Origin: Vicinamibacteria bacterium | Lineage (GTDB): Bacteria > Acidobacteriota > Vicinamibacteria > Marinacidobacterales > Marinacidobacteraceae | Reading direction: 5' to 3' | DNA: 64,000 nt | Assembly: GCA_965116805.1 (NCBI GenBank) | Contig: OZ220713.1 | Span: forward strand, 2,041,853 to 2,105,852 | Part shown: one piece after another, positions 5,344 through 33,810 of the stretch | How the letters are laid out: every line of letters starts with the position of its first letter | Position numbering within the stretch: position 1 is the stretch's first letter | The notes under the pieces: generated by a model | The model's input: only the letters and a program-made list of their open reading frames with translations | Databases searched by the model: none | Told to the model about the DNA's origin: nothing | Made by a program: the position numbers and the translations under genes

Positions 5344-5351
5344 AGGGGTAG

Positions 5352-6003
5352 GGAGCGCCGGCCGGTTCTCGCGGTAGCGGCCTTCAGACCGGCACCCGCG
5401 GCGCCCCCCCACCGGGAGAACTGGCGCGCCGCGGAAGGGCGCAACGCCAATCCTCCCGACGGCTGAGCCAACGCTACGATCCCCTTGAGCAGGCGCTGTT
5501 CACAGCCTGATTCCCAAGCCTTCGGGAACAACCATGATCACCAGATTCTCCGAGGATGTGATTCCCATGACCGATTTCAAGACCAGTGCCGAGGAACGGG
5601 AGTTCATGCGTGCGGTCATCGCCGGTCTCGCCGACTTGGACGCTGGCCGGGATCTGTCCCTGGCGGACGCGCTGGAACGACTCGGCATCGGCTGACTCCC
5701 TGCCGACGGAGTCCTCCTACCGCCCCGAGCGGGTGGTCCAAACGCCGCGATTGCGCCGCCGGCTTGGAACGCCGGCTTCAGCCGGCACAGCCCGCCGCAG
5801 GCGGGCGGCGGGACAGACCTCACGCGCCGGGATCGCCTCGGCCGCGTGCGCCAATGTTCGCGGGGTAGCGACGAACCGCCCGCGGCCCTGCGGGCCGCTG
5901 TGCCGGCTGAAGCCGGCGTTCCAAGCCGTACGCGTCACCTCCGAGGGGAGCGCCGTGCGTGCCGGTCTGAAGGCCGCTACCGCGAGAACCGGCCGGCGGT
6001 CCC
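5352..6003. mobile_element. MITE-like or REP-bounded element: about 650 bp bracketed by about 45-bp terminal inverted repeats, with a nested second inverted-repeat pair
   Basis: GGAGCGCCGGCCGGTTCTCGCGGTAGCGGCCTTCAGACCGGCAC at 5352-5396 is the reverse complement of 5956-6003. A nested pair GGCTTGGAACGCCGGCTTCAGCCGGCAC (5758-5790) and GTGCCGGCTGAAGCCGGCGTTCCAAGCCG (5905-5937) lies inside. The same motifs recur at five or more other loci. Confidence 0.45.
5534..5695 (+). CDS. Small hypothetical protein (53 aa) with an antitoxin-like C-terminal motif, carried inside the MITE-like element
   Basis: MITRFSEDVIPMTDFKTSAEEREFMRAVIAGLADLDAGRDLSLADALERLGIG*. Too short for the ORF track. The ...LDAGR.LSL.DAL.RLGI ending resembles RHH/ParD-RelB-type antitoxin tails. 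Weak RBS. Confidence 0.3.
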   Translation: MITRFSEDVIPMTDFKTSAEEREFMRAVIAGLADLDAGRDLSLADALERLGIG

Positions 6004-6050
6004 TTGCGCCGCGGTGCGGGTAGGCTCCCGCACCGTACGAGGAGGCCGTC

Positions 6051-12808: not shown

Positions 12809-13779
12809 TCGGAACCCTCCCGGCTGCTCGCCACCGGCAACGCGGCTTCCCGAAGCGCTTCGAGATAGTCCTGGAGGCGCCGGCCTGCATCGCCCGGCTC
12901 AAGATCGCCCGGCGCGACGCTGTCGGGTCCGGGGATCTCGGCCATGAAGGCGTAAACGAGTGCCCGGCCGGCAGGTTCCCCGGGGGCCGCGTAGTACCCC
13001 GAGAGCACGCGGGTGATGGGGCTCGAGTTGAGCGAGCCCCCCTTGTAGAAGTGGCGGCCGTCCTCCGTGTCCTCGAGGAAGAGGATGTCCCGCATCGCGG
13101 CGTGAGTCTGGGGCGAGATCCCGGGGACGTCGCCCCGGGCGACGGCGGCGAGGACCGCGGTGAGCGAGCCGGCCGTCGCGGTGTTGTCCCCGGTCACGTC
13201 CCGCGCGGCGAGCATGTAGCGGCGCGAGTCGATGCCGGAGAAATCCGGGTGGCGGGCCTGGATCCTGTCGGTGAGTTCGGGTGGCCCCCCGAGGAACGCG
13301 GTCACCAGGTTCGCCGCCGCGTTGTAGACCGGGTTCGAGACCCCGGTCCCCCGGATCATGTGGCGCCCCACCGTCCGCGCGGTGGCGGTTTCCAGGTGTT
13401 CCCGGATCTCCGCCTGGGTGTCCGCGTCGAAGTGGACGATGGCGGGATGTTCCGGATCGCCGACGACGTCCACCGCACCCGGGACGGGCTCGTCGAGCGC
13501 GTCGGCGCGGTCCGAGAAGAACTCGACCAGGTAGGCCGTCTTGATGGAGCTCGCCGCGGGGCGGGGGACGTCGGCGGACTCCGTGTAGAGCGCCTCGCCG
13601 TCCGCCGTCCCGATCCAGATGCTCCGGCCGAGGCCGGTGAACGCCGCGGCGTCCACGCCGTCGAGAGCGGCGGCGACCGCCTCGCGTCCATCGAGCGGGG
13701 CAGGGGCCGGAGCGGCCCCGTTGCAACCGGCCGCGAGGGCAACAAATGCCGCTAAGGTGTTCCGAAGGAGGATCCGCAT
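12805..13779 (-). CDS. Serine hydrolase, class A beta-lactamase-like lipoprotein
   Basis: Trimmed to MRILLRNTLAAFVALAAGC (lipobox). S-x-x-K motif SSIKTAYL, KGG box. Stop overlaps the downstream PQQ gene start (ATGA). The upstream Arg-rich 105 codons in the track ORF are judged non-coding. Confidence 0.7.
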   Translation of the reverse strand: MRILLRNTLAAFVALAAGCNGAAPAPAPLDGREAVAAALDGVDAAAFTGLGRSIWIGTADGEALYTESADVPRPAASSIKTAYLVEFFSDRADALDEPVPGAVDVVGDPEHPAIVHFDADTQAEIREHLETATARTVGRHMIRGTGVSNPVYNAAANLVTAFLGGPPELTDRIQARHPDFSGIDSRRYMLAARDVTGDNTATAGSLTAVLAAVARGDVPGISPQTHAAMRDILFLEDTEDGRHFYKGGSLNSSPITRVLSGYYAAPGEPAGRALVYAFMAEIPGPDSVAPGDLEPGDAGRRLQDYLEALREAALPVASSREGSE

Positions 13780-13816
13780 GGACGCGGTGAGCATATTCCG
13801 TGTTGATTGAACCGTC

Positions 13817-14629
13817 ATGTGGGTAACCCGGCCGCTCGCGCGGGGCTTCGACCCGGCCCGGATCAGGGACCCGGAACGTTCGGGAGCGGTGGACTGGGCG
13901 CTCTTCAACGCCAACTTCGAGCGGTTCCTGAACACCCCCTGGTGGCGCGTCAACCAGGGACATCGCGGCCCCGCGTGGCTCCGCGCTCTCCGTCTCGGCA
14001 TCGCGTACGCGCAGCAGCGGCGCGACGCGATCCACGACTTCACAGGCAAGGCGGCGGCGCTTTCCCGCCTGCGCGTCCCGCCCGACCCCAGCATCGTGTT
14101 CTTCGGCGCCGAGGCGGGCTGGGAGGCGGCGATCCTCCAGGCGCTCTTCGGAGCCGGCGGCGAAGTCGTCCTGATCGACGAGGACCCCGCGGCCCACGAC
14201 CGCTTCCGCCACGCGCCGCTCGCCGTTCGCGTCCGGGCGCCCCGCGGTTCGGCCCGCCACGAACTCCTCGTGAAGCGCGACCCCGACCGCTGGCGCTACC
14301 TCCGCCAGAACTTCTTCGACGTGCCCCCCGAGCCCCGTTTCGACGTCGGCATCGACTGGGGCCTCATCGAGCACTTCCCCGACCCCGGCAAGGCCAGGCT
14401 CATCGCCCACTTCCGGCGGTTCCTGAAACCCGGAGCCCTCCAGATCTCCAGCACCCCCCGGGACCGCTTCGCCGTCCGCCTCTTCTACCGCGCCTTCGCC
14501 GACGAACTCAACACCGGCTACCGCGAACTCATGACACTCCCCGAGCTAACGGACCGCATCGAGTCGGCAGGCGGCACAATCGAAACCCAACTCACCCTCC
14601 CCGCCCACAACATCGTCGCCTACCGATAA
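13817..14629 (+). CDS. Class I SAM-dependent methyltransferase-like protein
   Basis: Rossmann motif I ...SIVFFGAEAGWEAA..., acidic strand VVLIDEDP, post-II ...IEHFPDPGKARLIAHFRRFLKPGALQIS.... Confidence 0.6.
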   Translation: MWVTRPLARGFDPARIRDPERSGAVDWALFNANFERFLNTPWWRVNQGHRGPAWLRALRLGIAYAQQRRDAIHDFTGKAAALSRLRVPPDPSIVFFGAEAGWEAAILQALFGAGGEVVLIDEDPAAHDRFRHAPLAVRVRAPRGSARHELLVKRDPDRWRYLRQNFFDVPPEPRFDVGIDWGLIEHFPDPGKARLIAHFRRFLKPGALQISSTPRDRFAVRLFYRAFADELNTGYRELMTLPELTDRIESAGGTIETQLTLPAHNIVAYR

Positions 14630-15040
14630 CGCTCGGAGCGCCGGCCTCCGGCCGGCATCGACCGCCCCCAGGCGGTCGAAACCGCACCCCGCCTCCCGCC
14701 CTCTCCGCAGCAACGGCTGGGACCGCCGGTCTTCAGACCGGCAGCGGCCCGCAGGGCCGCAAAGCGCGCGGCCCCGATCCGCGTGGATGACGCGTACGGC
14801 TTGGAACGCCGGCTTCAGCCGGCACGCGGCCCGCAGGGCCGCAGAGCGCGCGGCGCTGATCCGCGCTGATGGCGCGTACGGCTTGGAACGCCGGCTTCAG
14901 CCGGCACGCGGCCCACAGGGCCGCAGAGCGCGCGGCGTTGATCGCGGGGAGAACACGCACGGCTGGGAGCGCCGGTCTTCAGACCGGCACGCGCGGCGCC
15001 CCCCCACCGGGAGAACTGGCGCGCCGCGCGCTTCGTACGC
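14630..15040. repeat. Cluster of REP/BIME-like palindromic units, including two about 80-bp tandem copies
   Basis: GTACGGCTTGGAACGCCGGCTTCAGCCGGCACGCGGCC(C/A)CAGGGCCGCAGAGCGCGCGGCG occurs twice in tandem at 14797-14960. Also GCCGGTCTTCAGACCGGCAC and CGCGGCGCCCCCCCACCGGGAGAACTGGCGCGCCGCG hairpins. The same units are found at 5.35-6.0 kb, 28.6 kb, 33.4-33.8 kb and 37.2 kb. Confidence 0.8.
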
Positions 15041-15044
15041 GGAA

Positions 15045-16147
15045 GCTCCGGTCAATAGCGACGAGGCTCCGGTCGATATCGAGGGCCTCGGGCTCCCAGC
15101 TCCAGTCGATAACTTCGGAGGTCCGGTCGATATCGGGCGTCTCGGATTCCCAGCTCCGGTCGATAACGCCGGGGGTCCGGTCGATATCGGATGTCTCGGA
15201 TTCCGAGCTCCGGTCGATATCGAGGATCGGTGGCGGAGTTGGCAATAGGATGAGGGCGCGATGATGCGCCACCTGACCGCAATCGTCGAACGGGAGGCCG
15301 ACGGATACGTCGCCCTGTGCCCGGAAGTAGATGTCGCGAGCCAGGGAGACACCGTTGCCGAGGCACGCGCGAACCTGAAGGAAGCGCTGACCCTATTCTT
15401 CGAGACGGCCCCCGCAGAGGAAATCGACCGGCGACGTGTCTCGGGATTCCAGCTCCGGTCGATAACTGTGGGGGTCCGGTCGATATCGGGGGTCTCGGAT
15501 TCCCAGCTCCGGTCGATAACGTCGGGGGTCCGGTCGATATGCGGTGTCTCGGATCTCAACTCCGGTCGATATCGAGGGTTGGCGGCGACAGGTCCGGTCG
15601 ATATCGATGGAGCTCCGGTCGATAACGCCAGCCGGCCAGTCGAGCTCCGGTCGATAACGCGCAGCTCCGGTCGATATCCGGGGTCGGCGGGCTGGAAGCT
15701 CCGGTCGATAACGTGGAGCTCCGGTCGATATCCGGGGTCGGCGGGCTGGAAGCTCCGGTCGATAACGTGGAGCTCCGGTCGATATCCGGGGTCGGCGGGC
15801 TGGAAGCTCCGGTCGATAACGTGGAGCTCCGGTCGATATCGGAGGCCGGCGGGCTGGAGGCTCCGGTCGATAACGTGGAGCTCCGGTCGATATCCGGGGT
15901 CGGCGGTTGGAAGCTCCGGTCGATAAACGTGGAGCTCCGGTCGATATCGGAGGCCGGCGGGTGGAGGCTCCGGTCGATAACGTGGAGCTCCGGTCGATAT
16001 CGGAGGCTGGCGGGTGGAGGCTCCGGTCGATAACGCGGTGTAGGAGACGCCCGTAGAGTCGGAGTTGGGAGACACCAACTTTTGCGCACGGGGGAGGCGA
16101 GGCTCCGGTCGATAGCGATGGTCAGCGAAGGGAGCTCCGGTCGATAA
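15045..16147. repeat. Tandem array of about 31 copies of a 16-bp motif GCTCCGGTCGATA(A/T)CG alternating the ATAACG and ATATCG variants, in two clusters (15045-15221 and 15452-16147). Includes a 54-bp higher-order repeat of about 6 copies at 15699-16030.
   Basis: Directly visible: ...gctccggtcgataacgtggagctccggtcgatatccggggtcggcgggctggaa... repeated with period 54. Copies are spaced 20-33 bp apart. The core contains the palindrome CGATATCG. One isolated copy sits at 17079-17095. Confidence 0.9.
15261..15926 (+). CDS. HicB-like (UPF0150) antitoxin-domain protein. The N-terminal roughly 58 aa form a genuine domain. The rest of the ORF is read-through of the tandem array.
   Basis: MMRHLTAIVEREADGYVALCPEVDVASQGDTVAEARANLKEALTLFFETAPAEEIDRR matches the HicB/UPF0150 N-terminal fold. 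From residue about 60 the frame is translated repeat (QLRSITVGVRSISGVSD...). No HicA partner adjacent. The true C-terminus is unknown. Confidence 0.4.
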   Translation: MMRHLTAIVEREADGYVALCPEVDVASQGDTVAEARANLKEALTLFFETAPAEEIDRRRVSGFQLRSITVGVRSISGVSDSQLRSITSGVRSICGVSDLNSGRYRGLAATGPVDIDGAPVDNASRPVELRSITRSSGRYPGSAGWKLRSITWSSGRYPGSAGWKLRSITWSSGRYPGSAGWKLRSITWSSGRYRRPAGWRLRSITWSSGRYPGSAVGSSGR

Positions 16148-16148
16148 C

Positions 16149-16931
16149 ATGAGACTCGTGACTCTTCGTCGAGCGGCGCTTGGCGCCGTGCTGGCGCTCA
16201 TGGCGGTCGTGGTGACGCTCGCCGTGATCCGGCGGTCGGCCACTCCGCCAGCGCCCACGACTTCGGCAGACGAGGCGCTTGCCCTGGAGTCACCGTCCTA
16301 CGGCACGCGTGAACCAGCGGTGGACGCTGCCGAGCCGGAAACCGAGGTCCCCGATGAAGTCCTGGCCGTTCAAACGCCACCGGACAGCAGTCCGGCGGGA
16401 CTCCTGGTGGCAGCCGCCGGGGCGGGCGACGCCGCGCGCGTTCGGGAACTCCTCGCTGCCGGAGTGCCGCCGGATTCCGAGAGTCAGGGAACGTTCGCCA
16501 TTCACCGCGCCGCGGTCGCTGGTTCGGTCGCGGTACTCCAGGTTCTCGTGGAGGCCGGAGCGCACCTCGAAGCGCTCAACCAGTACGGGCAGACGGCCCT
16601 GACCCAGGCTGCGTTCTACGGCAATGCGGAAGCGGTGGTGTTCCTGCTGAGCGCGGGCGCCGACCCGAACGCCCACGCCGAACCGAACCATCAGACACCC
16701 CTGAGGGCGATCCTGAGCGGCTGGACAATGACTCTCTCGAGTCGCTCGCGGCTCCCGCCGAAGGACGAGGAACGCTTCGCGGCGGCCTGGGCGCTCATTC
16801 AGGCGGGGGCCGATCCACACTTCGGTCCCGGAGACCATCCACCGCCAGTGGTGATGGCGGAAGCCCTCGGCGGCGAAGTCGGGCGGCTCTTCGCCCAGGA
16901 TCCGACCGATCCCGGGCAGCGCCCGCGCTGA
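16149..16931 (+). CDS. Ankyrin-repeat protein with N-terminal signal/TM anchor
   Basis: MRLVTLRRAALGAVLALMAVVVTLAV...; repeated ANK units (..TPLHRAA..G....VLVEAGA..). The ATG sits immediately after the last array copy (...gctccggtcgataacATG). Confidence 0.8.
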   Translation: MRLVTLRRAALGAVLALMAVVVTLAVIRRSATPPAPTTSADEALALESPSYGTREPAVDAAEPETEVPDEVLAVQTPPDSSPAGLLVAAAGAGDAARVRELLAAGVPPDSESQGTFAIHRAAVAGSVAVLQVLVEAGAHLEALNQYGQTALTQAAFYGNAEAVVFLLSAGADPNAHAEPNHQTPLRAILSGWTMTLSSRSRLPPKDEERFAAAWALIQAGADPHFGPGDHPPPVVMAEALGGEVGRLFAQDPTDPGQRPR

Positions 16932-17163
16932 ACGGGCAGGTGCCCCAGGGCCCGGGTTCGGCGCTGTCCGGTCCCCCGCTCCGGACTAGAGCGAGCCGAG
17001 CGTGGCCCAGGGGTCTCCGCGCAGCGTCCTGAGCCCGGCGATCGCCGAAGCGAGGAGCATCAGTCGACAGCGACGGAGGCTCCCGTCGATATCGGATTCG
17101 AAGTCCTGTTCGGCCGCGCCGTAGGACCGACGTCAAACCGAAGCGGCGATGGGCGCGGTTGAT

Positions 17164-17436
17164 CTATTTCGGCACGTGGTGCCGCCGATATGCCTGACTC
17201 CGGTGGAGGACGGCTTCGATGGCCACGGAGCCAGTCTGCGGATCATGTCGGTAGATCACGCGCCAATCCCCGACCCGGAGCCGCGCCATGTTGCCCGGCC
17301 CCTTCAGTCTCTTCACATCGCCCTGATCTTGCTCGACATAACGGTCGATCGCCTCAACTACCCGAATGCGAGCCGGCCGATCAAGCCGCTTCAGGTCGCG
17401 AAGCGCGCGATTCGTATAGGACGCGCGTTCGGTCAG
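17164..17436 (-). CDS. RelE/ParE-family type II toxin lacking a canonical start codon (possible pseudogene, or CTG start overlapping the antitoxin stop)
   Basis: Reverse frame gives LTERASYTNRALRDLKRLDRPARIRVVEAIDRYVEQDQGDVKRLKGPGNMARLRVGDWRVIYRHDPQTGSVAIEAVLHRSQAYRRHHVPK*, a classic RelE/ParE core. The in-frame upstream stretch back to a TGA contains no ATG/GTG/TTG. Confidence 0.5.
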   Translation of the reverse strand: MTERASYTNRALRDLKRLDRPARIRVVEAIDRYVEQDQGDVKRLKGPGNMARLRVGDWRVIYRHDPQTGSVAIEAVLHRSQAYRRHHVPK

Positions 17437-17687
17437 ATGCCTAGTTCTCGCTTCACCTCGGCCGAGGTGTGAGTCCGTCCGGCCATGCGATCCGCGCGGG
17501 CCTCTTCAATCGCTCGCAGCGCCTCACCGCTCAACTCGTCCTCATCGAGTGGCAGCGTCGCCACCGGCCTGCGTCCGAGACGGGGTTGCCTAGCCAAGGA
17601 TTCAAGCACCCTCGTGGCGAGGGGGGTCTGCGTATCCGGGAGTCGATCCACCAAGTCGTGGAGCCTGGCCCTGGCTGCCCCTTTCAT
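17433..17687 (-). CDS. Type II antitoxin (RelB/ParD-like or addiction-module component) paired with the RelE/ParE toxin
   Basis: 84 aa, ...LPLDEDELSGEALRAIEEARADRMAGRTHTSAEVKRELGI*, acidic C-terminal region typical of antitoxins. Its stop overlaps the toxin's first codons. Confidence 0.6.
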   Translation of the reverse strand: MKGAARARLHDLVDRLPDTQTPLATRVLESLARQPRLGRRPVATLPLDEDELSGEALRAIEEARADRMAGRTHTSAEVKRELGI

Positions 17688-17800
17688 GAGCCGAATCTAG
17701 CACATGGATCACGGCTGAACCCGATGGTCCGGCACGGAAGAGAGGGCCCGGTGCTTCCACGATGGGCCGCCTGGGTTGAGACCGGTCTGCCTGACGGCGA

Positions 17801-18619
17801 TCACGTCCCCCCACGCGAAGCCCAGGGCTCCGGCGCCCACAGTCTCCAGCGAGTGATGAGCCGGGGGCACTCCAGCGCCGCATCCAGCTGTGTATTCCCA
17901 GCGGTGAGGCGCTGGCGGCAGGATTCCAACAGTTCCGGGCCTGACGGATCGCGTTCGGCGAGAAAGCCCAGCCGCTTGAAGACCGCACCGTTGCCGAGCC
18001 GGACGGCGTAGCGGATCAGGAGGTCGTCGTCGCGGCGGTCCGACTTGAGGTAGACCGACAGACAGTCGGCCACGTGCTGGATTCCGCCTCCGAGTTCCGG
18101 ATCGGCGAGCATGTCCAGGATGGTCCGGTGCATGTCCGCCACCGCGACCCGGGTTCTGCCACGCCAGACGCTGGCGGTCCCGAAGATCTTTCCCGGGCGG
18201 ACGTGGGTGACGCTGAACTCGGCGCCGTGGCAACGCCGGCTCTTCTGCCGCACGGTCTGCGCCGTCATGACCACGATGTCACGGAAGATCTGTTCGGTCA
18301 GATCCCAGTGCTCGGCGGCCGTGCGGCCACCGATGTAGGCCGGATCAAAGAGCGGCGGCACCAGGATCCACGGATCGTCCAGCACACGGATGCTGCCGAG
18401 CGTGGTGAGTGAGGCAGGGAGGTAGACGCCGCGGGCTGCGCGCCGCAGCCATGCCTGTTTCACCCAGCGCGAGAGCAACTTCGCAGCCTCGGCGCGCGAC
18501 ACCTCGAGGGCGTTCACGACATCCTCTATCCGCACGACGTCCCCGGCTTCGTTGAGGACGGCGCTGAGGCGACGGCGCGATTCCGGAACGACGGGATCCG
18601 ATGTGGTGGTGGTTCTCAT
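17801..18619 (-). CDS. AbiEi-like (COG5340) antitoxin/transcriptional-regulator domain protein
   Basis: N-terminal wHTH ...DVVRIEDVVNALEVSRAEAAKLLSRWVKQAWLRRAARGVYLP.. followed by AbiEi_4-like ...FDPAYIGGRTAAEHWDLTEQIF....VTHVRPGKIFG.... No cognate AbiEii nucleotidyltransferase downstream. Confidence 0.6.
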   Translation of the reverse strand: MRTTTTSDPVVPESRRRLSAVLNEAGDVVRIEDVVNALEVSRAEAAKLLSRWVKQAWLRRAARGVYLPASLTTLGSIRVLDDPWILVPPLFDPAYIGGRTAAEHWDLTEQIFRDIVVMTAQTVRQKSRRCHGAEFSVTHVRPGKIFGTASVWRGRTRVAVADMHRTILDMLADPELGGGIQHVADCLSVYLKSDRRDDDLLIRYAVRLGNGAVFKRLGFLAERDPSGPELLESCRQRLTAGNTQLDAALECPRLITRWRLWAPEPWASRGGT

Positions 18620-19172
18620 GGTCGGCGAATCACGGAGGCTACGTCCTGGCGTGGCGGTGGCGTCTGCGTCTACTCGTGACTTCAGTTGTCCGGAACTACA
18701 TTACATTGTCATTTGATCGCACTAGTCGGGAAATTCAGACATCTCCATATATCCCAAGTCAATCCTGTCCAACTCGACACACCGTTGATCTCTCCCGCAA
18801 TCCGACCGGTCACCGCGACCCGGTCATTCCCGGATCAAACGCAAAACCTGTGGTTGGTCAGCGGTTTGTGGGGTTGTGTGCTCTCTCTAATATCGCTTTC
18901 CAGTCAAATAGATAAACCACGTTTTAACAATGACTTAGCGTGCTTTGTGCTCCAGGCGAGCGTTTCCGGTCAAGTAAACGCGGGTCGTCGGCTCGGAGTT
19001 CGGACGGGAGCAGCCGGCACCCGGCGGCCGCACCGCCGCCGGATCTGGAGCGCGAGCTCGCTCAGGCCGAGACTCAGTGCGATTCGGACTGATTCACTTC
19101 AGGACTGGAGGGCGGCAAGAGTCGCCACCAGGACGAATCCGGCAGGAACCCCCTGAAACAATACGCCGCCGC

Positions 19173-21992
19173 ATGCGCCTCTCCTGGAACGAGATCCGCG
19201 CCCGCGCCGGGTCCTTCGCCCGCAAGTGGGCGGACGCCGGATACGAGAAAGGCGAGACCCAGAGCTTCTACAACGACTTCTTCCGCATCTTCGGGGTGCG
19301 CCGGGAGTCGGTGGCCCGCTACGAGGAGCGGGTGGAGAAGCTCGACGACACCAGCGGGTTCATCGACCTCTTCTGGCCGGGAGTCCTGATCGTCGAACAG
19401 AAGAGCGCCGGGCGCAACCTGTCCGCTGCATACGAGCAGGCGGGAGGCTACTTCGACGCGCTGACGGAGACCGAGCGGCCTCGCTACATCCTGGTCAGCG
19501 ACTTCCAGCACTTCGAACTCCACGACCTGCTCCAGCGGGACGAGGTGTCCTTCCGGCTCGACCAGTTGCCGGAACACGTCGAGAAGTTCGGCTTCATCCT
19601 GGGTGTCGCCAGCCGCACCTTCCGGGACCAGGACCCGGCGAACATCGAGGCCGCCGAACTGGTCGGGAAGCTCCACGATTCGCTCCGGGACGCCGGCTAT
19701 CCGGCCCACGACCTCGAACGCTTCCTCGTCCGGATCGTCTTCTGCCTGTTCGCCGACGACACCGGAGTCTTCGAGCCCCGGGACATCCTGCTCGACTTCC
19801 TGGAGACGCGGACCCGCGAGGACGGTACGGACCTCGGACCACTGCTCGCCCAACTCTTCCAGGTGCTGGACACCCCCGAAGACCAGCGAATCGCAACTCT
19901 GGACGAGGATCTGGCCCGCTTTCCGTACATCGACGGCGAACTCTTCGCCGCCACCATCCGGATTCCAGCGTTCACCGCGGAGATGCGGGAGCACCTGCTG
20001 ACCGCCTGCCGGTTCAACTGGTCAACGATCTCCCCGGCGATCTTCGGGTCGCTTTTCCAGTCGGTGATGGACCCGGTGGAGCGTCGGGCGCAGGGGGCGC
20101 ACTACACCACCGAGCAGAACATCCTCAAGGTCATCGAGCCGCTCTTCCTCGACGATCTGTGGGAGGAGTTCACCCGGATCAGAGCCCTCCGCCGCGATCG
20201 GCTTCGGCGGCTGCGCGAGTTCCAGGAGAAGCTCGGCAGGCTCACTTTCTTCGATCCGGCGTGCGGCTGCGGCAACTTCCTGGTGATCGCGTATCGCGAG
20301 CTTCGGCGGCTGGAAGTCGAAGTACTCCGCGAGCTCCTGGGGAGGGAGGAACAGCAGGTCCTCCAGTTTGACGTGAGTTCGCTCTCCCGGCTCGACGTAG
20401 ACCAGTTCTACGGGATCGAGATCGGGGAGTTCCCGGCCCGGATCGCCGAGGTGGCTCTCTGGATGATGGACCACCTGATGAACAACGAGCTCAGCCTTGA
20501 GTTCGGTCAGTCCTACGCCCGCATCCCCCTGAAGCGCTCGCCGCACATCCACTGCGGGGATGCGCTGGAGATGGACTGGGAGGATCTGCTGCCGGCGAAG
20601 GAGTGTTCGTTCGTCTTCGGGAATCCCCCGTTCGGAGGCGCCAAGTTCCAGTCACCGGCGCAGCGGGCGCAGGTCCGGCGGATCGCCGCGCTCGGGGGCT
20701 CCGGCGGCACACTCGACTACGTGACCGCGTGGTTCATCACAGCGGGTGGATATATCCAGAAGAGCGGCCCGCCGGGCGAGCGGGCAAGGATCGGCTTCGT
20801 GGCGACGAACTCGATCACCCAGGGGGAGCAGGTGGCGCAGCTCTGGCCGATCCTGTTCGGCCGGTGCGGGCTTGAGATTGCCTTTGCCCACCGGACGTTC
20901 GCGTGGGGTTCGGACGCGCGGGGCATGGCGCATGTACACGTCGTCATCGTCGGGTTTGACGACCGGGCGGGGATTCCGGCGACGCGGCGGCTGTTTTCGT
21001 ACGACGACGTGAAGGGGAATCCGCATGAGAGTGGCCACGCGGTCTTGTCACCGTATCTGTTCGATGGCGGGGGACTGGCCGATCCGCATCTCGTGGTGCG
21101 GGAGGAGAGCCGGCCGATCAACGGGATGTCACAGTTGGTGACGGGCACCCAGCCGCTGGAAGACGGTCATCTCACTTTCTCGACCGAAGAGAGAGCGGTC
21201 TTTCTGTCTCGAGAGCCGGCCGCCGCGTCAATTCTCCGTCCGTTCCCGGGAGCACGTGAGTTCATTCGGCGTCAGACTCGGTGGATCCTTCACACCGGCA
21301 ACCTTGAGCCACAGGAACTCCGTGCTTTACCGCTCGTGCGCGAGCGACTGAGATTGGTGCGCGAGTTCCGCTCGAAGAGCAAGCGCACTACGACGCGGAA
21401 ACTGGCGGACTACCCGAGCATGTACGGTGTCACCGTGGTTCCGAACTCACCGTTCCTCGTGGTGCCTCAGGTGAGTTCAGAGCGGCGCGAATACGTGCCA
21501 ATCGGTTGGTTGGAACCTCCGACAATCCCGAGCGAAAAGCTGCGACTCCTTCTCGATGCGTCTCTTGCCGACTTCGCTCTCCTGACATCAGCAATGCATA
21601 TGGCATGGATGCGCGCGGTCACGGGCCGATTGGAGAGCCGTTACATGTATTCTGTGGGAGTGGTCTACAACACCTTCCCGCTACCTCCGAAGGACGCGGA
21701 TCTGGGTCCCCTCGACCCGCTCGCCCAAGCTGTCCTCGATGCCCGCGCCGCTCATCCCAACGCCACTCTCGCGGATCTCTACGACCCGGACCTCATGCCG
21801 GTGGACCTCCGCCGTGCCCACGAGGCACTCGACCGCGCCGTGGACCGTCTCTACCGGCCCCGCAAGTTTGCCTCCGAGCGGGAACGCGTCGAGCACCTCT
21901 TCACGCTCTACGAGCGGATGCGCACGCCGCTGGCCGCCACCACCACGAAGAAGCGCAAACGCCGTCGGACTAGCCGCCTATCCGCCATTTGA
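19173..21992 (+). CDS. MmeI-family type IIL (IIG) restriction-modification enzyme: single-chain endonuclease + N6-adenine methyltransferase + TRD (939 aa)
   Basis: MRLSWNEIRARAG... aligns by eye along its length with MmeI as I remember it (not database-checked). PD-ExK nuclease IDLFWPGVLIVEQKS; MTase motif I FFDPACGCGNFLVIAYRELRRLEVEVLRELL; motif IV FVFGNPPFGG; downstream ...ATNSITQGEQVAQLWP... and ...SERREYVPIGW.... The first Met of the track ORF (19077) is rejected in favour of Met33 (19173). Confidence 0.85.
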   Translation: MRLSWNEIRARAGSFARKWADAGYEKGETQSFYNDFFRIFGVRRESVARYEERVEKLDDTSGFIDLFWPGVLIVEQKSAGRNLSAAYEQAGGYFDALTETERPRYILVSDFQHFELHDLLQRDEVSFRLDQLPEHVEKFGFILGVASRTFRDQDPANIEAAELVGKLHDSLRDAGYPAHDLERFLVRIVFCLFADDTGVFEPRDILLDFLETRTREDGTDLGPLLAQLFQVLDTPEDQRIATLDEDLARFPYIDGELFAATIRIPAFTAEMREHLLTACRFNWSTISPAIFGSLFQSVMDPVERRAQGAHYTTEQNILKVIEPLFLDDLWEEFTRIRALRRDRLRRLREFQEKLGRLTFFDPACGCGNFLVIAYRELRRLEVEVLRELLGREEQQVLQFDVSSLSRLDVDQFYGIEIGEFPARIAEVALWMMDHLMNNELSLEFGQSYARIPLKRSPHIHCGDALEMDWEDLLPAKECSFVFGNPPFGGAKFQSPAQRAQVRRIAALGGSGGTLDYVTAWFITAGGYIQKSGPPGERARIGFVATNSITQGEQVAQLWPILFGRCGLEIAFAHRTFAWGSDARGMAHVHVVIVGFDDRAGIPATRRLFSYDDVKGNPHESGHAVLSPYLFDGGGLADPHLVVREESRPINGMSQLVTGTQPLEDGHLTFSTEERAVFLSREPAAASILRPFPGAREFIRRQTRWILHTGNLEPQELRALPLVRERLRLVREFRSKSKRTTTRKLADYPSMYGVTVVPNSPFLVVPQVSSERREYVPIGWLEPPTIPSEKLRLLLDASLADFALLTSAMHMAWMRAVTGRLESRYMYSVGVVYNTFPLPPKDADLGPLDPLAQAVLDARAAHPNATLADLYDPDLMPVDLRRAHEALDRAVDRLYRPRKFASERERVEHLFTLYERMRTPLAATTTKKRKRRRTSRLSAI

Positions 21993-22170
21993 GAACCTAG
22001 GTGGGTCGCAGCGGGCTCGCCCACCCGGACTTCCGTGTGGGTTGTCTCTGAGTGAAGGAGCGGCCGGCCTGTCTGGGGCTAAGGTTTTCCGGGACGAGCC
22101 CACAAGCCGGCATACTCAACGCCCCGGCGACACCTTGTGAATACGCCAGGAATGAGCGGGGAGACCTAGC

Positions 22171-23262
22171 GTGACGGACATCATTGAGCCGGCACAGAGT
22201 GAACTGATGGTGTACCGCCCCCTCTCGCAAATGGTGCAGCTGTTCGTGCTGCCAGAGATTGATAGACGCGTCGATTCCGGCGCGATCCCAGAAGTCGATC
22301 TGCCGCTGCAGCTGCTTCAGTTCAGGGTCGTCGAGCCCGGACCCAGGCATACCGTTGAACTCAATGACGAGGTTCAGCTCACGTTTCGTGTCAAGGCGAA
22401 GAAGGCCGTCAAAGCCGGGGAGCCCGTCCACCTCGACGAGATTGACGCTGCCTCCACCGTGCTACTGCCGCCCATCGTGGATGGGACGCCTAGGTCGTTC
22501 TTTCTCCTCCTATCGGCGTTCCTAAACCTGCAGACGGCGTTTGACTTTACCCAGGGCGGACCTGGTCCCATCGGACCACCAATGCTGTTTCCGGCTGCCC
22601 AGTTGGTCCAGATGCAGCGATTTCTTGAGACGGTACAGCCAGTGGAGAAGTTCAGGGAGTTGGCACGGCTCAACTGGCCACCGGCACCGGGGTACTTCCC
22701 TAGTGTCATCGCGCATGCGCATGAGAATCCCGACGATCTGAAGAGGCCGCAGTTCGCGGCCAAGGTTGCAGATACGTACGATGCGGACTTCTGGCAGCAA
22801 CAGCTGGATCTCTGGGGGCAGACCAAACTCTTTCCAGGCCGGTCGCAGTACATCCGTAAAGCCGTCGACGAGTATTGCGAAGACGACTGGATAAGCTCCA
22901 TTTGCGTCATCGTCCCTCAGTTTGAGGGCATCATCTCGGACTACCTACGGACTGTCGGTGAGGAGCCGAAATCCAGGTTCAAAGAAATGGTGTCTCAGCT
23001 CCGGACGCTTGTGTTTTCGCGGAAAGTATTGCTATTCCCGTCGCCTGTCCTTGAGTTGATTCTCGGATTCCTCGAAACGGGAACATTCTGGCAGAACGCG
23101 GATAGCATCGACGATCCGAAACAACAGATCAACCGGCATGGAATTGTCCACGGAGTATTCACCGGTTTTGAGACAAGGGACGTAGCTCTAAAGTACCTGG
23201 TACTCGTCGATGCGCTCGCGCTGCTGATTTTGCACGACAGGATTGTGACCGGCACTCTCTAG
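22171..23262 (+). CDS. Hypothetical protein (363 aa), low-GC, no recognisable family. C-terminal R-x4-H (RHGIVH) could be a HEPN-like motif.
   Basis: GTG start with RBS. Clean 1.09 kb ORF in a roughly 52% GC segment. Convergent with the 4-TM gene. Confidence 0.7.
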   Translation: MTDIIEPAQSELMVYRPLSQMVQLFVLPEIDRRVDSGAIPEVDLPLQLLQFRVVEPGPRHTVELNDEVQLTFRVKAKKAVKAGEPVHLDEIDAASTVLLPPIVDGTPRSFFLLLSAFLNLQTAFDFTQGGPGPIGPPMLFPAAQLVQMQRFLETVQPVEKFRELARLNWPPAPGYFPSVIAHAHENPDDLKRPQFAAKVADTYDADFWQQQLDLWGQTKLFPGRSQYIRKAVDEYCEDDWISSICVIVPQFEGIISDYLRTVGEEPKSRFKEMVSQLRTLVFSRKVLLFPSPVLELILGFLETGTFWQNADSIDDPKQQINRHGIVHGVFTGFETRDVALKYLVLVDALALLILHDRIVTGTL

Positions 23263-23327
23263 CCGCATGGCTCCAGAGACCGAAGTCGGTCGCAGTCCGC
23301 CATGTGCAAGAGCGTTGGTGCACGTCG

Positions 23328-24194
23328 TCAGTCGCGATCTTCCGTCCTCGATAGCGTGTCATTCCAAACGCGCTGCAACGGTTCCTCGTAATAGCGCTTA
23401 AGGCTGTCCGGGATAAGTGGTCCTTCCTTACGTGCCCACTGATAGCCTGAGACGGCAAGAATCACGTCAAGATTGGACACACTGCCGACTCGATCCAGGA
23501 GCTCTGTGAGCCTCTTCATTGATTCCTCCGCCGCCACGCTCAACCGATGGTACTTCGTCCCTAGATTCACAGCGTCCAGAAGGACAAGTAGAGAAATGGC
23601 CAAGCCATAACTGCGCCGGAGGATTCCTGAGGCACCCATAGTTGCTCGCTCGTCCTGTACTTCCAGTCCCCCTAGCGTTATAGCTGAGACGGAAACCACT
23701 AGCGCGGCCCCCGTCACGATGAAGACAATCAGCGATGCCTTCTTGGCTAGCTGCTCGGTCCACCAGGCGGACTCGCGTTCCATTCTGATGAGCAGAGAAT
23801 GTGAGGGCTCGCCCGACGCTTCATAGTAATCGTCGTAGCTCACAGAGGGACCTTGTCTCGGCAACCTGTTGACATACTTCAACTTCACTCTGGCCAACTT
23901 CGCCGCGTCAATCTTGTACCCGATGCCACGGCTTAGTTCGATAGCCCGAATGGTCCATTCCGCGTCTTCCCGATAGTTTTCTGACCTCCAAACACAGATC
24001 CGCCCGGAGATCGCAAACACGACCGCACCCAGCGGTCCGACCCACCCTTGCCATCCAATCGACCATGCGATCGGAACGGCCACAATAGCCAGATAGCCAA
24101 GACTGACGCCGAAACCCCACAACAGCTTTGCCCGAGAGGACACCCAGGTCCGGAGGTGGTGAAGTTGCTTCAAATCTGGCTCACCAATGCTCAT
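23328..24194 (-). CDS. Four-TM membrane protein (288 aa), candidate membrane-disrupting effector (SLATT/4TM-like)
   Basis: TM pairs LLWGFGVSLGYLAIVAVPIAW / WVGPLGAVVFAISGRICVW and ASLIVFIVTGAALVVSVSAITLGG / LAISLLVLLDAVNLG separated by soluble segments. Low GC. Downstream of the nucleotidyltransferase on the same strand. Confidence 0.7.
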   Translation of the reverse strand: MSIGEPDLKQLHHLRTWVSSRAKLLWGFGVSLGYLAIVAVPIAWSIGWQGWVGPLGAVVFAISGRICVWRSENYREDAEWTIRAIELSRGIGYKIDAAKLARVKLKYVNRLPRQGPSVSYDDYYEASGEPSHSLLIRMERESAWWTEQLAKKASLIVFIVTGAALVVSVSAITLGGLEVQDERATMGASGILRRSYGLAISLLVLLDAVNLGTKYHRLSVAAEESMKRLTELLDRVGSVSNLDVILAVSGYQWARKEGPLIPDSLKRYYEEPLQRVWNDTLSRTEDRD

Positions 24195-24423
24195 GTCAGT
24201 CTAAGTTCGAGGTGTAAAGAAAGGCTGTCGCGCAAATCGTGTCCACTTCAAGCGAGCATGCTCAGAGACCCGGCAATCCTACGACCCGCTATGTTCTCAG
24301 GAACTCCTCGATACGCAAGCGATGCTGGAGAGCAACGGGCCCACGATGCTTCTAGACGGCGTGGTTGCCGACCTCCAGCCGTTGCCCACAGGCTGCTCCA
24401 CTCGCCAGTCACGACACAGCAAT

Positions 24424-24453
24424 CGCGAGGAGTACCCGCGCGAGGAGTACCCG
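24424..24453. repeat. Perfect tandem duplication of a 15-bp unit CGCGAGGAGTACCCG x2 in the spacer between the nucleotidyltransferase and 4-TM genes
   Basis: ...aatCGCGAGGAGTACCCGCGCGAGGAGTACCCGgtgatg... read directly. Confidence 0.9.
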
Positions 24454-24495
24454 GTGATGACTAAATGGTCCGAGAGCCCTCGCCGCCCACCGCGC

Positions 24496-25368
24496 TTATT
24501 TGTAATAGCTCGGGAACTGCCCATCGAACAGTAAGTTCCACCAATAAAAGGCGTCCTTGATTTCCCCGCTGCTCTCCGCCGCCCTCGCCTTCGCGGCCCG
24601 TGAGGCTGCGGTTGCCAGCTTGCTCTTCGCCTCCTTCAGCTGTGCCTCCGTCCTGGATGGTGAGATGTACCCCGATACACCCATGGGATCTTGGATCTTG
24701 GCCAGTCCGATCCGTTGGAGCTCACGGAACACGCGCTCTACGTCAATCGCATACACGATCGACGACTCTCCGGACGCGTACTTGGCCACGCGGAGCTCCA
24801 GATAGAACGACAAGACCGGCACATCGCGGAAACACTTCCAGGCCTTGATGAATCTCACGAGCGGCTTCACCTTGTTCGACAGCGATTGGTCAATGCCCCG
24901 GACGTAACTGTTATGTGCGTCCGGACTCGACTTCATCCAACCCCCATCGCAATCCGGGATCTCGTACACGCGATGGTCACCACTCTTCCCGACGTAATCC
25001 GCCGGCGTCACCTCCGTCGTCTCCTTCTTGTCGGTGCCGAACGGCACAACCACTGCGGGACAGGCCGACCGCACACCCGTGTCGGGGAATCTTTCGGCCA
25101 GTGCGTCGCGTAGCTCCGTTAGCGAAGTCGTCGAGTTCCGCTTTAGCTTGTCCGTTGGGATACTCGCCATGTAGTCAACGTCGCTGTACCCAGAGATCGA
25201 CGTGCCGTTGCCGAACGATCCCGTACGCCAGAAGCGTTTGAGTCCAAATTTGGAGCGGATGCACTGTTCAATCGACTTGCGGTGCCTCGTGGCGGCGGCC
25301 GTTTCGCCACTCGACGGAGTGAGCTTGGTCAGAAAATCTCGGAATCCCTCATCAACTGTCCTAGGCAT
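24496..25368 (-). CDS. cGAS/DncV-like (CD-NTase / SMODS-type) nucleotidyltransferase, 290 aa
   Basis: Pol-beta NTase motif WRTGSFGNGTSISGYSDVDYM (GS...[DE]h[DE]h); third acidic strand VYEIPDCD; followed by the OAS/cGAS-type helix ...LVRFIKAWKCF.... Low GC. Confidence 0.65.
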   Translation of the reverse strand: MPRTVDEGFRDFLTKLTPSSGETAAATRHRKSIEQCIRSKFGLKRFWRTGSFGNGTSISGYSDVDYMASIPTDKLKRNSTTSLTELRDALAERFPDTGVRSACPAVVVPFGTDKKETTEVTPADYVGKSGDHRVYEIPDCDGGWMKSSPDAHNSYVRGIDQSLSNKVKPLVRFIKAWKCFRDVPVLSFYLELRVAKYASGESSIVYAIDVERVFRELQRIGLAKIQDPMGVSGYISPSRTEAQLKEAKSKLATAASRAAKARAAESSGEIKDAFYWWNLLFDGQFPSYYK

Positions 25369-25533
25369 TACATTCTCCCGTGAAGTTCAACGGTCTCGCG
25401 ACGCAAGGCCGGGCCGCAGCTAGTGTTCCCCTTCAGGCCTCGCATCCAAGAGTCGACCTCCAGGGAAGAACGCCTAAGTACGCCCTTTCGCCGTTCGAGG
25501 GCGTCGTAAGGGCTCTGCATCAAGTCGCAATCG

Positions 25534-28599: not shown

Positions 28600-28860
28600 G
28601 TCCCTTCAGGGGTTCGGCGTCATCAGTGCGGGTTTCGCGCTCCCGCGTGGCTCCCGCCGGGAGGACTGGGCCGGCCGGTGGCCGGCGGTCCGAGCCGGTG
28701 CGTCATGCGGGCGAGCACCACCGTGCGGTTCGCGGCCTGCGGCCGCGGTGCCGGCTGAAGCCGGCGTTCCAAGCCGTTGCGCGATGCGGAGGAACGGCCC
28801 TGTGCGGTTCGCGGCCTGCGGCCGCGGTGCCGGTCTGAAGACCGGCGCTCCCAGCTGAGG
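28600..28860. repeat. Composite REP/BIME-like repeat. An about 100-bp unit (CATCAGTGCGGGTTTCGCGCTCCCGCG...GGGAGGACTGGGCCGGCCGG...) plus GCCGGCTGAAGCCGGCGTTCCAAGCCG and GTGCCGGTCTGAAGACCGGCGCTCCCAGC hairpin units.
   Basis: About 85% identical in inverted orientation to 33540-33660. Hairpin units are shared with 5.4-6.0, 14.7-15.0, 33.5 and 37.2 kb. Confidence 0.8.
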
Positions 28861-31692: not shown

Positions 31693-32016
31693 ATGCCTAC
31701 CCACCGGCCCGAACGGGGCAACGTTCCCGATTCCGACAACGCCGCCGCTCCGGAAGACATCTGGACCGTCGCCGAGGCGAAGTCACGGCTCCCGGAGGTG
31801 CTGCGGCGAGCCAGCGCGGTGAGGCCGCAGCAGATCGGGGTGCACCGACCCCACGTCGTCGTGCCGCTCGATCAGTGGCTCGCCCTCGGGCGGCCCGAGC
31901 GCAAATTCGGGGAGTGGCTGGTCGAGAACGCCCCTCGCGGCTGCGAGATCGAGCTGCCGAGCCGGCAGGACGGCGACCGGGAGATTCCCTTCGCGGAGCA
32001 AGCTGGCGGGGAATGA
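31693..32016 (+). CDS. Phd/YefM-like type II antitoxin-domain protein (orphan, with about 22-aa N-terminal extension)
   Basis: ...IWTVAEAKSRLPEVLRRASAV.PQQIGVHRPHVVVPLDQWLAL... matches the Phd/YefM core. No toxin gene follows. Confidence 0.5.
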   Translation: MPTHRPERGNVPDSDNAAAPEDIWTVAEAKSRLPEVLRRASAVRPQQIGVHRPHVVVPLDQWLALGRPERKFGEWLVENAPRGCEIELPSRQDGDREIPFAEQAGGE

Positions 32017-32168
32017 CTCCCTCGCCACCCGGAACGTCCACGGCTTTGGAGGGCTCGGAGTCAGTCTCGAATCCCGCGGAGGCCCCTTCGCGCGTCCTCT
32101 GAATGGACGCCGGACTCAGCAGCGAGCGGGGCGAATAGTCATAACCTGCCGCGTTTATGCGGTAGACT

Positions 32169-33409: not shown

Positions 33410-33810
33410 AGAAGACGCGAACCCGCCCGTCTGGCGGCCGCCAAACCGCCTTCCGGACTGGATGCCGTGATGGATCATCGAGGTGTTTGCGCCCTCCCGG
33501 CGAGTTGAGTCCTTCCCGCCGCCCGCCTTCGGCGGGCTGTGCCGGTCTGAAGACCGGCGCTCCCAGCCGTGGGCGTCATCTCCGCTCGGAGCGCCGGCCT
33601 CCGGCCGGCCCAGTCCTCCCGGTGGGGGCCGCGCGGGAGCGCGAAACCCGCGGTGATGGCGCCAGGCCATGCGAACGGGAGAACCGCCGCCGGCTCCGTT
33701 GGCGGGTGCGGTTTCGACCGCCTCTCGGCGGTCGATGCCGGCTGGAAGCCGGCGCTCCGAGCCCGCAAAACGGTAGAGAGTCCAAGCGGTTGCGGCGCCG
33801 GCGCTCGGGG
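33410..33810. repeat. Composite REP/BIME-like repeat (inverted copy of the 28.6 kb unit plus hairpin units)
   Basis: 33539-33570 TGTGCCGGTCTGAAGACCGGCGCTCCCAGCC. 33560-33660 is the reverse complement of the about 100-bp unit at 28630-28730. 33727-33750 GCCGGCTGGAAGCCGGCGCTCCGAGCC. Confidence 0.8.

Follow-up and report, generated by a model that had tools for sequence, protein, structure and literature searches.

What does a long tandem array of short direct repeats do on an acidobacterial chromosome? The question was raised by a stretch of 64,000 nucleotides from a Vicinamibacteria bacterium (contig OZ220713.1; the whole stretch is called the window below), in which a 16-bp motif, GCTCCGGTCGATAWCG, is repeated on both sides of a truncated hicB gene and up to the start codon of an ankyrin-repeat gene. 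The array is probably a phased set of binding sites for a new, lineage-specific family of winged helix-turn-helix (wHTH) proteins, of which the window would hold an orphan relic. A binding-site array for some regulator was one of several options in the initial annotation of the window; it is the one favoured here, with a specific protein family as the candidate binder.

The search for GCTCCGGTCGATAWCG at up to two mismatches yielded 31 matches in the window, all on the plus strand, against a chance expectation of 0.24, and none of 100 shuffled sequences gave 31 copies. All 31 were confined to 15045-17094, and the remaining 62 kb of the window was empty. An extra degenerate copy with three mismatches was located at 15527. 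As initially described, the copies were arranged in two clusters around a small gene, with 7 copies in the left cluster (15045-15222) and 24 in the right (15452-16149, the copy at 15527 counted in). The last core of the array stopped 2 bp short of the ATG of the ankyrin gene (16149), and a solo copy was found at 17079-17094, 930 bp past the last copy, both as claimed. The short spacing described for the motif was also recovered, since the start-to-start distance within the clusters was 20-21 or 32-34 bp, with a single 82-bp gap between 16020 and 16102.

Next, related arrays were sought in one genome per species, with two cores 8-38 nt apart as the query pattern (596 Gb searched). The scan returned 103 loci, 57 of which came from 16 marine or sponge-associated metagenome-assembled genomes (MAGs). 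Thirteen of the 16 MAGs were labelled Acidobacteriota or Vicinamibacteria, and the three labelled as other phyla carried their arrays only on contigs of 3.6-6.4 kb. The 57 loci contained 61 arrays outside the window, with 3-67 copies and a single orientation within each locus. Across 63 arrays, of which 61 lie outside the window, the core stayed the same, and the spacers differed from array to array. In 11 arrays with a period of 32 bp (193 units, each anchored on a core that deviated at no more than one position, no unit being skipped), the 11 core columns were non-consensus in 0.5% of cases versus 15% for the spacer columns, which makes the core about 30 times less variable than the spacer.

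The distances between cores followed an equally clear rule. Among 805 units, 174 distances were 20-22 bp, 531 were 30-34 bp, and 36 were 52-54 bp, with almost none in between; these classes amount to roughly 2, 3, and 5 turns of B-DNA. The 30-34-bp class was three times commoner than the 20-22-bp class, and most arrays had a 32-bp period and are therefore non-coding. The window array fits the family pattern, with an invariant core, a variable spacer, one orientation, and spacings of 20-22 or 31-34 bp.

A gene for a wHTH protein adjoined the array in nine of the motif-derived loci, always on the strand opposite to the motif and with the array on one or both of its sides. The encoded proteins were about 340-400 residues long and comprised a conserved helical N-terminal domain, a disordered linker rich in Pro and Glu, and a C-terminal wHTH domain. 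The family consisted of 63 clusters (90% identity) at 46% identity or more to the query, none with an informative name and only one of the 63 with a precomputed Pfam match. Pfam scans of the wHTH protein gave sub-threshold matches to Fic-like_C and HTH_20 at the C-terminus and nothing more, and NCBIfam gave a single far-sub-threshold match, to the disordered linker. PADLOC returned no match, so the protein was not assigned to a known defence system. A phage origin was considered and rejected because IMG/VR holds no relative of the protein. In the AlphaFold2 model, the single C-terminal wHTH domain had a predicted local distance difference test score (pLDDT) above 90, the linker of about 100 residues was disordered, and the N-terminal domain formed a bundle of long helices with a pLDDT of 55-76. 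Foldseek matched only the C-terminal wHTH domain, and the best matches were DNA-binding MarR-type domains; as a PDB sequence search had no match either, no function was assigned to the N-terminal domain from structure. In a closer relative picked from the protein side, P0056 (L118), five cores of TCCGGTCGATA type lie on the opposite strand, 38-230 bp before the start of the gene, with spacings of 31, 32, 64, and 65 bp.

The association was also seen in more distant members of the family. A profile search of 1.84 billion representative proteins returned about 30 full-length distant relatives, and the DNA around ten of them was examined. Arrays were found beside eight of the ten (about 30-45% identity), seven clear and one weak, with the same spacing and unrelated cores, as follows.

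L112 (protein P0080): 13 copies at exactly 32 bp.
L115 (P0066): 11 copies at 32 bp, core GGAATTGACGCATGCT, also written TTGACGCATG.
L111 (P0074): core GAATTGTGTATAG, six copies at 31 bp and six at 20-22 bp, with variable spacers.
L113 (P0077): core GCATGGAGTTCCC, 17 copies at 32-33 bp, also flanking a DUF4143 ATPase gene.
L117 (P0089): core GCATGTGTGATAA, 11 copies at 21-23 bp, in two clusters.
L110 (P0070): core AATGGACGCATG, 10 copies, a GACGCAKG-type core.
L107 (P0068): core GGACGCRGG, 8 exact copies, all upstream of the gene, a GACGCAKG-type core.
L109 (P0073): a small, weak cluster.
L108 (P0067): no array.
L116 (P0079): no array, on a contig of only 2.3 kb.

The predicted recognition helix and the core covaried in this set. 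The helix G(A/S)RNL(A/V)RRHL and the core GACGCA(T/G)G were common to P0066, P0068, and P0070, and every protein with a different predicted recognition helix had a different core. Since a housekeeping gene beside P0068 places that contig among Vicinamibacteria-like genomes, the family seems to comprise paralogous pairs of protein and array from a single acidobacterial lineage.

Several arrays can be present on one chromosome. The family arrays were found on chromosome-level assemblies of 3.7 and 4.2 Mb; the latter, OZ244986.1, carried eight arrays (12, 5, 23, 20, 41, 14, 17, and 40 copies) in six places, against one wHTH gene seen. Its largest arrays, of 40 and 41 copies, were orphans. Such orphan arrays, perfectly kept far from the wHTH gene, suggest that the arrays work in trans at several chromosomal sites.

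As for the taxonomic range, the short contigs with an array or a wHTH gene that bore other labels (L066, Acidimicrobiia; L017, Gemmatimonadetes; L032, Bryobacterales; P0013, Rhodospirillales) have probably been misbinned on account of the repeats, since their content was near-identical to that of acidobacterial loci. Conservation of the 11-mer TCCGGTCGATA across phyla was considered and rejected: the matches in Bacillaceae, Alphaproteobacteria, Anaerolineae, Planctomycetes, and three viral contigs were coding repeats of calcium-binding type or unrelated tandem arrays of 12-41 bp with nothing but the 11-mer in common, and they were treated as chance given the 596 Gb searched. Tandem arrays of 20-23 bp or 40-41 bp that contain TCCGGTCGATA were seen in unrelated taxa, namely in Virgibacillus and Lentibacillus (L004, L008, L009, L030, L044, L047, L050, L053, L056, L059, L064, L087, L091, L093, L096, and L106), on viral contigs (L002 and L003), and in Anaerolineae (L013). 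In the arrays from Bacillaceae, TCCGGTCGATA alternates with GGTTGATA. The arrays of these taxa have in common a periodicity of about 20 or 40 bp; the presence of the 11-mer in them was judged to be chance given the size of the database. No description of the acidobacterial array family was found in the literature.

The array region of the window, including the remnants of genes around it, was resolved into the following features.

15045-15222, plus strand: left array, seven cores in 54-bp type A units.
15223-15260, plus strand: leader between the left array and the start of hicB, near-identical to the leader of the intact elements in L089, L080, and L019.
15261-15437, plus strand: hicB remnant (hicB'), codons 1 to about 59 of 73.
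15438-15643, plus strand: start of the right array, with type A copies at 15452, 15473, 15506, 15527 (degenerate), and 15559, and transitional copies at 15591 and 15612.
15644-16035, plus strand: type B 54-bp higher-order repeat of the right array, about 7.3 units with 15 cores.
16036-16149, plus strand: core-free stretch of 66 bp, then two terminal copies (16102 and 16134).
16149-16931, plus strand: gene for an ankyrin-repeat protein with an N-terminal hydrophobic segment.
16987-17063, minus strand: remnant of a permease gene, last 25 codons and stop; the gene is intact in L022 (837 aa).
17079-17094, plus strand: solo array unit that retains recognisable spacer on either side, at the left border of a defence island of lower GC content.

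Two kinds of unit make up the array. The type A unit, found on both sides of the small gene, consists of a 21-bp short and a 33-bp long unit with the spacer GTCTCGGATTCCC, and the type B unit consists of GCTCCGGTCGATAACGTGGA (20 bp) and GCTCCGGTCGATATCCGGGGTCGGCGGGCTGGAA (34 bp) with the spacer GGGGTCGGCGGGCTGGAA. The 54-bp higher-order repeat reported for the right half was recovered by Tandem Repeats Finder (TRF), which detected 3.3 copies at 15044-15219, 2.5 at 15438-15571, and 8.9 at 15560-16035. Two details of the initial annotation required correction. The ATAACG and ATATCG variants of the motif, described as strictly alternating, alternate for the most part, with exceptions at 15174/15207, 15527/15559/15591, and 15612/15644; ATAGCG variants occur at both array ends. 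Likewise, not all three forward frames are without stops: across the higher-order repeat two are open, and the third has a TAA in each ATAACG unit (15655, 15709, 15763, 15817, and 15871). The open reading frames (ORFs) through the array had weak codon bias, with a GC content at third codon positions of about 0.70-0.75 versus 0.85-0.95 in real genes. A coding nature of the repeats was set aside on the basis of this weak bias and of the 32-bp period of most family arrays, which is no multiple of 3.

An RNA reading of the array was rejected as well. Rfam gave no match within 14000-18000 at E values up to 1, and the folding of the higher-order repeat was weak (z of -2.2 on the plus strand, with a nearly unstructured centroid, and -0.2 on the minus strand). 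A promoter or terminator role was likewise set aside, as consensus scans turned up neither. The ankyrin gene itself was confirmed by Pfam (Ank_2, E 2.8e-13), and the array may affect the expression of this abutting gene.

The array is located on the chromosome and not on a plasmid, because its locus is syntenic in five other MAGs and because the flanks include genes for tRNA-Asp, GroEL, and an RND (resistance-nodulation-division) pump. In the five related MAGs, the array was present at the same locus with 3-22 copies between flanks of 85-92% nucleotide identity: 3 copies in L052, 14 in L007, 15 in L022, 4 + 14 in L078, and 7 + 15 in L045, compared with 7 + 24 in the window. The flanking genes common to the window and the five MAGs encode the RND pump, a pyrroloquinoline quinone (PQQ) propeller protein, a beta-lactamase-like protein, and a methyltransferase; the window further encodes tRNA-Asp and GroEL. 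The ankyrin gene 2 bp after the array was also present in L022 and L078. A second assembly in ENA (L114), compared with the window over 13149-19931, showed 18 substitutions and no indels, and the array was identical base for base. All 18 substitutions fell within 13161-14468 (1.4% over that stretch); the following 5.4 kb, with the array, the ankyrin gene, and the first part of the island, was free of them. The pattern points to a recent recombination or sweep with its boundary immediately to the left of the array.

Attention then turned to the small gene that separates the two clusters. The ORF at 15261 codes for about the first 58 residues of an antitoxin of HicB type before it runs on into the repeats. 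The initial annotation had called this a bona fide HicB domain; its own Pfam match was sub-threshold (E 0.0026-0.04), and the assignment stands because HicA adjoins the homologous gene in intact loci. The window HicB' was 78% identical to intact HicB proteins of 73 aa, which lie before the HicA toxin in related loci. The window copy of hicB lacks about 14 codons at its end, and hicA is wholly gone; tblastn of the 64-kb window found neither hicA nor a wHTH gene. The intact arrangement was seen in L019, L080, and L089, where the gap between two arrays is filled by a 73-codon hicB overlapping hicA (Pfam HicA_toxin, E 2.8e-14), and where an ORF for a wHTH protein of 340-380 residues lies across array 1 from hicBA on the opposite strand. 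The window, L045, and L078 retain the same leader and hicB, each having lost hicA, and their hicB genes break at different codons (about 58, 67, and 63, respectively). The window copy is a decayed derivative of an element with the order wHTH gene, array, hicBA, array, since its leader, hicB (78% identity), and type A spacer are shared with L089. The locus resembles HicAB type II toxin-antitoxin systems in that its clusters enclose the 5' part of hicB, but it differs from them in being a remnant and not a working module. Two ATPase genes were likewise found between arrays, one of AAA_22/AAA_16 type (L012) and one of DUF4143/AAA_14 type (L048).

HicB as the array-binding protein was judged unlikely, on our own reasoning that 73 residues are too short for a separate DNA-binding domain; most family arrays have no hicB nearby, which also counts against it. 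An inverted core, ATCGACCGG (coding for IDR), was noticed inside hicB at 15423-15431, a few bases before the window break, and it is also present in L089. This core may be there by chance, or it may have made recombination with the array more likely.

The neighbourhoods of the arrays were often rich in toxin-antitoxin, mobile, or defence genes, and the same was true around the distant relatives. The neighbours confirmed by Pfam were HipA, Phd, an HTH_3 antitoxin, rve and DDE_Tnp_1 transposases, an SNF2 helicase, and two ATPases; a second HipA, an IS256-type transposase, and an integrase were recognised by N-terminal resemblance only. In the window, synteny with L022 stops at 17064, where the 837-residue permease is cut to its last 25 codons, and the solo unit lies 15 bp beyond this break. 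Island borders and rearrangement breakpoints are thus marked by arrays.

The island that begins here (17065-25400) has a GC content of 0.55-0.66 versus about 0.70 elsewhere, and GroEL follows directly after it; the GC content of the array region is 65% at 1-kb resolution. The island contains the C-terminal half of a ParE toxin (17164-17316) with an 84-residue ORF upstream that has no Pfam match and is presumed to be the antitoxin, AbiEi (17801-18619) without a recognisable AbiEii, an MmeI-type restriction-modification enzyme (19077-21992), two ORFs of no assigned family, and a cyclase (24496-25368) and four-transmembrane (4TM) effector (23328-24194) of a cyclic oligonucleotide-based antiphage signalling system (CBASS). 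Further on, a DUF4143/AAA_14 ATPase gene (32169-33407) follows a small unannotated ORF (region 31693-33407) and is itself followed by repeats that resemble repetitive extragenic palindromic (REP) elements. ATPases of DUF4143 type, which give matches to the PADLOC candidate system PDC-S01, also lie between arrays in L048 and L113. The REP-like repeats form a separate family of about 80 bp with the core GGCTTGGAACGCCGGCTTCAGCCGGCAC, located at 5350-6004, 14631-15028, 28616-28855, and 33495-33762. They are found in either orientation, are always intergenic, and form tandem sets of 2-3.4 copies (periods of 82 and 79 in TRF). The set at 14631-15028 lies directly left of the array; the family is unrelated in sequence to the 16-mer. 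Two other repeats of the window are also unrelated to the array: a 667-bp tandem duplication with 77-81% identity (44622-45736), and repeats of 54 nt and 38 nt at irregular spacings of about 150-380 bp (62411-63568), which look like coding repeats of a large minus-strand gene.

In the model that we favour, the repeat unit would consist of an invariant core of 11-16 nt and a spacer that is free to vary. Cores placed 2 or 3 helical turns apart would present the bound proteins on one face of the DNA, where they could form a long nucleoprotein coat, and we infer that it is the wHTH domain that binds the core, with many copies of the protein on one DNA face. The ancestral order would have been the wHTH gene on the opposite strand, array 1, hicB-hicA, and array 2. 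The window would have lost the wHTH gene, hicA, and the 3' end of hicB, and a protein whose gene lies at another site of this genome would now bind its arrays in trans; such a copy of the wHTH gene is assumed. As a speculation, the coat may insulate, silence, or anchor flexible toxin-antitoxin and defence islands, in addition to self-regulation of the wHTH gene. We think that a role in replication or partition is less likely than these.

Several points weigh against this model. The wHTH gene is absent from the 64-kb window by tblastn, and two of the ten distant relatives (L108 and L116) had no array, one of them on a 2.3-kb contig. The N-terminal domain was modelled only at a pLDDT of 55-76 and is without recognisable relatives, so no particular downstream function is supported, and the genes flanking the arrays are found in every orientation, which gives no simple regulatory logic. 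The constancy of the core between arrays is partly a matter of ascertainment, as the arrays were found by a core search; the within-array contrast between core and spacer is much less affected by this. Concerted evolution could also add to the homogeneity of the cores.

By principle, the systems closest to the array are plasmid iterons with their Rep proteins, parC-ParR, tubC-TubR, and the omega heptads, and the array lacks the defining features of each. The initial comparison with iterons and partition centromeres was sound as to architecture, that is, phased direct repeats in two clusters around a small gene. Membership in either class fails because the locus is chromosomal, has no Rep gene, DnaA-box cluster, or partition NTPase, and because one chromosome can hold eight arrays.

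The array could be a partition centromere, with the wHTH protein as an adaptor for a motor NTPase that stabilises an integrated or excisable element; we regard this as unlikely. As in parC-ParR of R1, pSK41, and pB171, in tubC-TubR, and in the omega heptads of pSM19035, clusters of direct repeats flank small genes, and the gene for the presumed binding protein is adjacent, with arrays on one or both sides and self-regulation probable, an adjacency that holds in the intact elements and not in the window. TubR is a wHTH protein, and omega, which belongs to the omega-epsilon-zeta system of pSM19035, is encoded together with a toxin-antitoxin pair and occupies several arrays of the same replicon. 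A toxin-antitoxin module is likewise part of the present element, and the paralogous protein and array pairs with distinct specificities in one lineage recall incompatibility groups. However, the wHTH protein has no sequence relation to ParR, TubR, or omega, and no gene of ParA, ParM, or TubZ type was found among the Pfam-scanned ORFs of the window or the called genes around 11 relatives. Eight arrays in one chromosome-level assembly against one protein gene seen also fit poorly, and the wHTH-associated arrays are stable chromosomal features shared by species, at the same locus between flanks of 85-92% identity, which argues against an episome.

It is decidedly unlikely that the arrays serve mainly as portable homology, a landing pad that promotes the exchange and insertion of cassettes from the islands (for example toxin-antitoxin, defence, ATPase, and ankyrin genes) between units. 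Genes for hicBA, the wHTH protein, and the AAA_22 and DUF4143 ATPases are indeed embedded between arrays, the solo unit sits at the island junction that truncates the permease gene, and the neighbours are enriched in transposases, toxin-antitoxin genes, and one integrase-like gene, the last by resemblance only. The identity of array and island in two strains whose left flank is 1.4% different points the same way. On the other hand, no recombinase is conserved beside the arrays, and the junctions lie at no fixed position in the unit. Exchange of this kind would be a possible side effect of any long repeat, and it leaves the conservation of the core and the phasing unexplained.

A neutral or selfish minisatellite, generated by slippage or unequal crossing-over with the wHTH gene and hicBA as passengers, is improbable. 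The 54-bp higher-order units are near-identical, and the break of hicB at different codons in three orthologous loci fits sloppy recombination. Of the hypervariable minisatellite suggested initially, the variation held between species, with 3-31 copies at one locus, but not between two strains, whose arrays are identical beside a 1.3-kb flank that is 1.4% different. The 30-fold difference in variability between core and spacer within arrays stands against slippage, as does the recurrence of only two spacing classes, each of whole helical turns, with unrelated cores. Moreover, array and protein occur together in 8 of 10 distant relatives, and helix and core change jointly.

Replication-origin iterons of an integrated plasmid-like replicon, with the wHTH protein as initiator, are very improbable. 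The array shares with the iterons of P1, F, RK2, and pPS10 type the same-orientation direct repeats of about 16-22 bp at whole-turn spacing (here about 21 bp, or two turns), and a winged-helix gene adjoins the repeats that its product presumably binds. Additional arrays away from the gene could serve as copy-control sites, and a toxin-antitoxin addiction module lies alongside. In contrast to Rep proteins, the wHTH protein has one wHTH domain and not two, joined through a long disordered linker to a helical N-terminal domain, and it matched no Rep family in Pfam or NCBIfam; no Rep gene was found in the window. DnaA-box-like matches numbered 8 versus 9.7 expected, with no cluster at the array, and no AT-rich unwinding region was apparent at the 1-kb resolution at which the GC content was 65%, no direct search for one having been made. 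The arrays of the family reach 40-67 copies, the 32-bp class dominates, and the context with tRNA, GroEL, and RND pump genes, syntenic in chromosome-level assemblies, is chromosomal.

Finally, an assembly artefact, the collapsed or expanded repeat that the initial annotation had allowed for, is scarcely credible: the position of many related arrays at contig ends in short-read MAGs does indicate that assemblers struggle with them, but independent assemblies agree on this array, L114 having no difference across it despite 18 substitutions nearby, orthologous arrays exist in five other MAGs, and arrays are present in chromosome-level MAG assemblies.

Two further classes of repeat were compared. 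The array resembles CRISPR in its constant repeats, more variable spacers, and single orientation, but the core of the window and family arrays is 11-16 nt, not about 23-50, and the spacers are 4-18 nt long and are diverged copies of each other instead of unique acquisitions. No cas genes were present among the Pfam-scanned neighbours; no search aimed at cas was made. With REP elements and bacterial interspersed mosaic elements (BIMEs), the motif has in common that it is lineage-wide, intergenic, and present at many loci per genome, but it occurs in long tandem arrays and not as scattered palindromic units. It is therefore not the genome-wide REP element without local enrichment that had initially been considered, and outside tandem arrays only rare solo remnants, such as that at 17079, were found.

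In summary, the array is best read as a phased set of binding sites for the wHTH protein family. More broadly, it is possible, if doubtful, that paralogous wHTH and array pairs with orthogonal specificities nucleate large nucleoprotein assemblies at several chromosomal sites in Vicinamibacteria-type Acidobacteriota, and in this way organise, silence, or stabilise toxin-antitoxin and defence islands. Such pairs would amount to a hitherto unrecognised class of chromosomal protein-DNA system, different from replication origins, partition centromeres, and CRISPR; it might, tentatively, be viewed as a bacterial counterpart of satellite-nucleated chromatin domains.

The arrays have a practical consequence for genomes of this lineage: they break short-read assemblies, as many of them lie at contig ends, and those on three contigs of 3.6-6.4 kb labelled as other phyla may have misled binning. 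If the proposed pairing holds, an unannotated family of DNA-binding proteins gains a cognate element that can be read from the genome sequence. Each member of the family would come with its own predicted site and would thus provide natural pairs of helix and core for the study of specificity in wHTH recognition. The arrays would then represent a new repeat-based chromosomal landmark in uncultured sponge and marine Acidobacteriota, placed at the borders of toxin-antitoxin and defence islands and beside eukaryote-like ankyrin genes.

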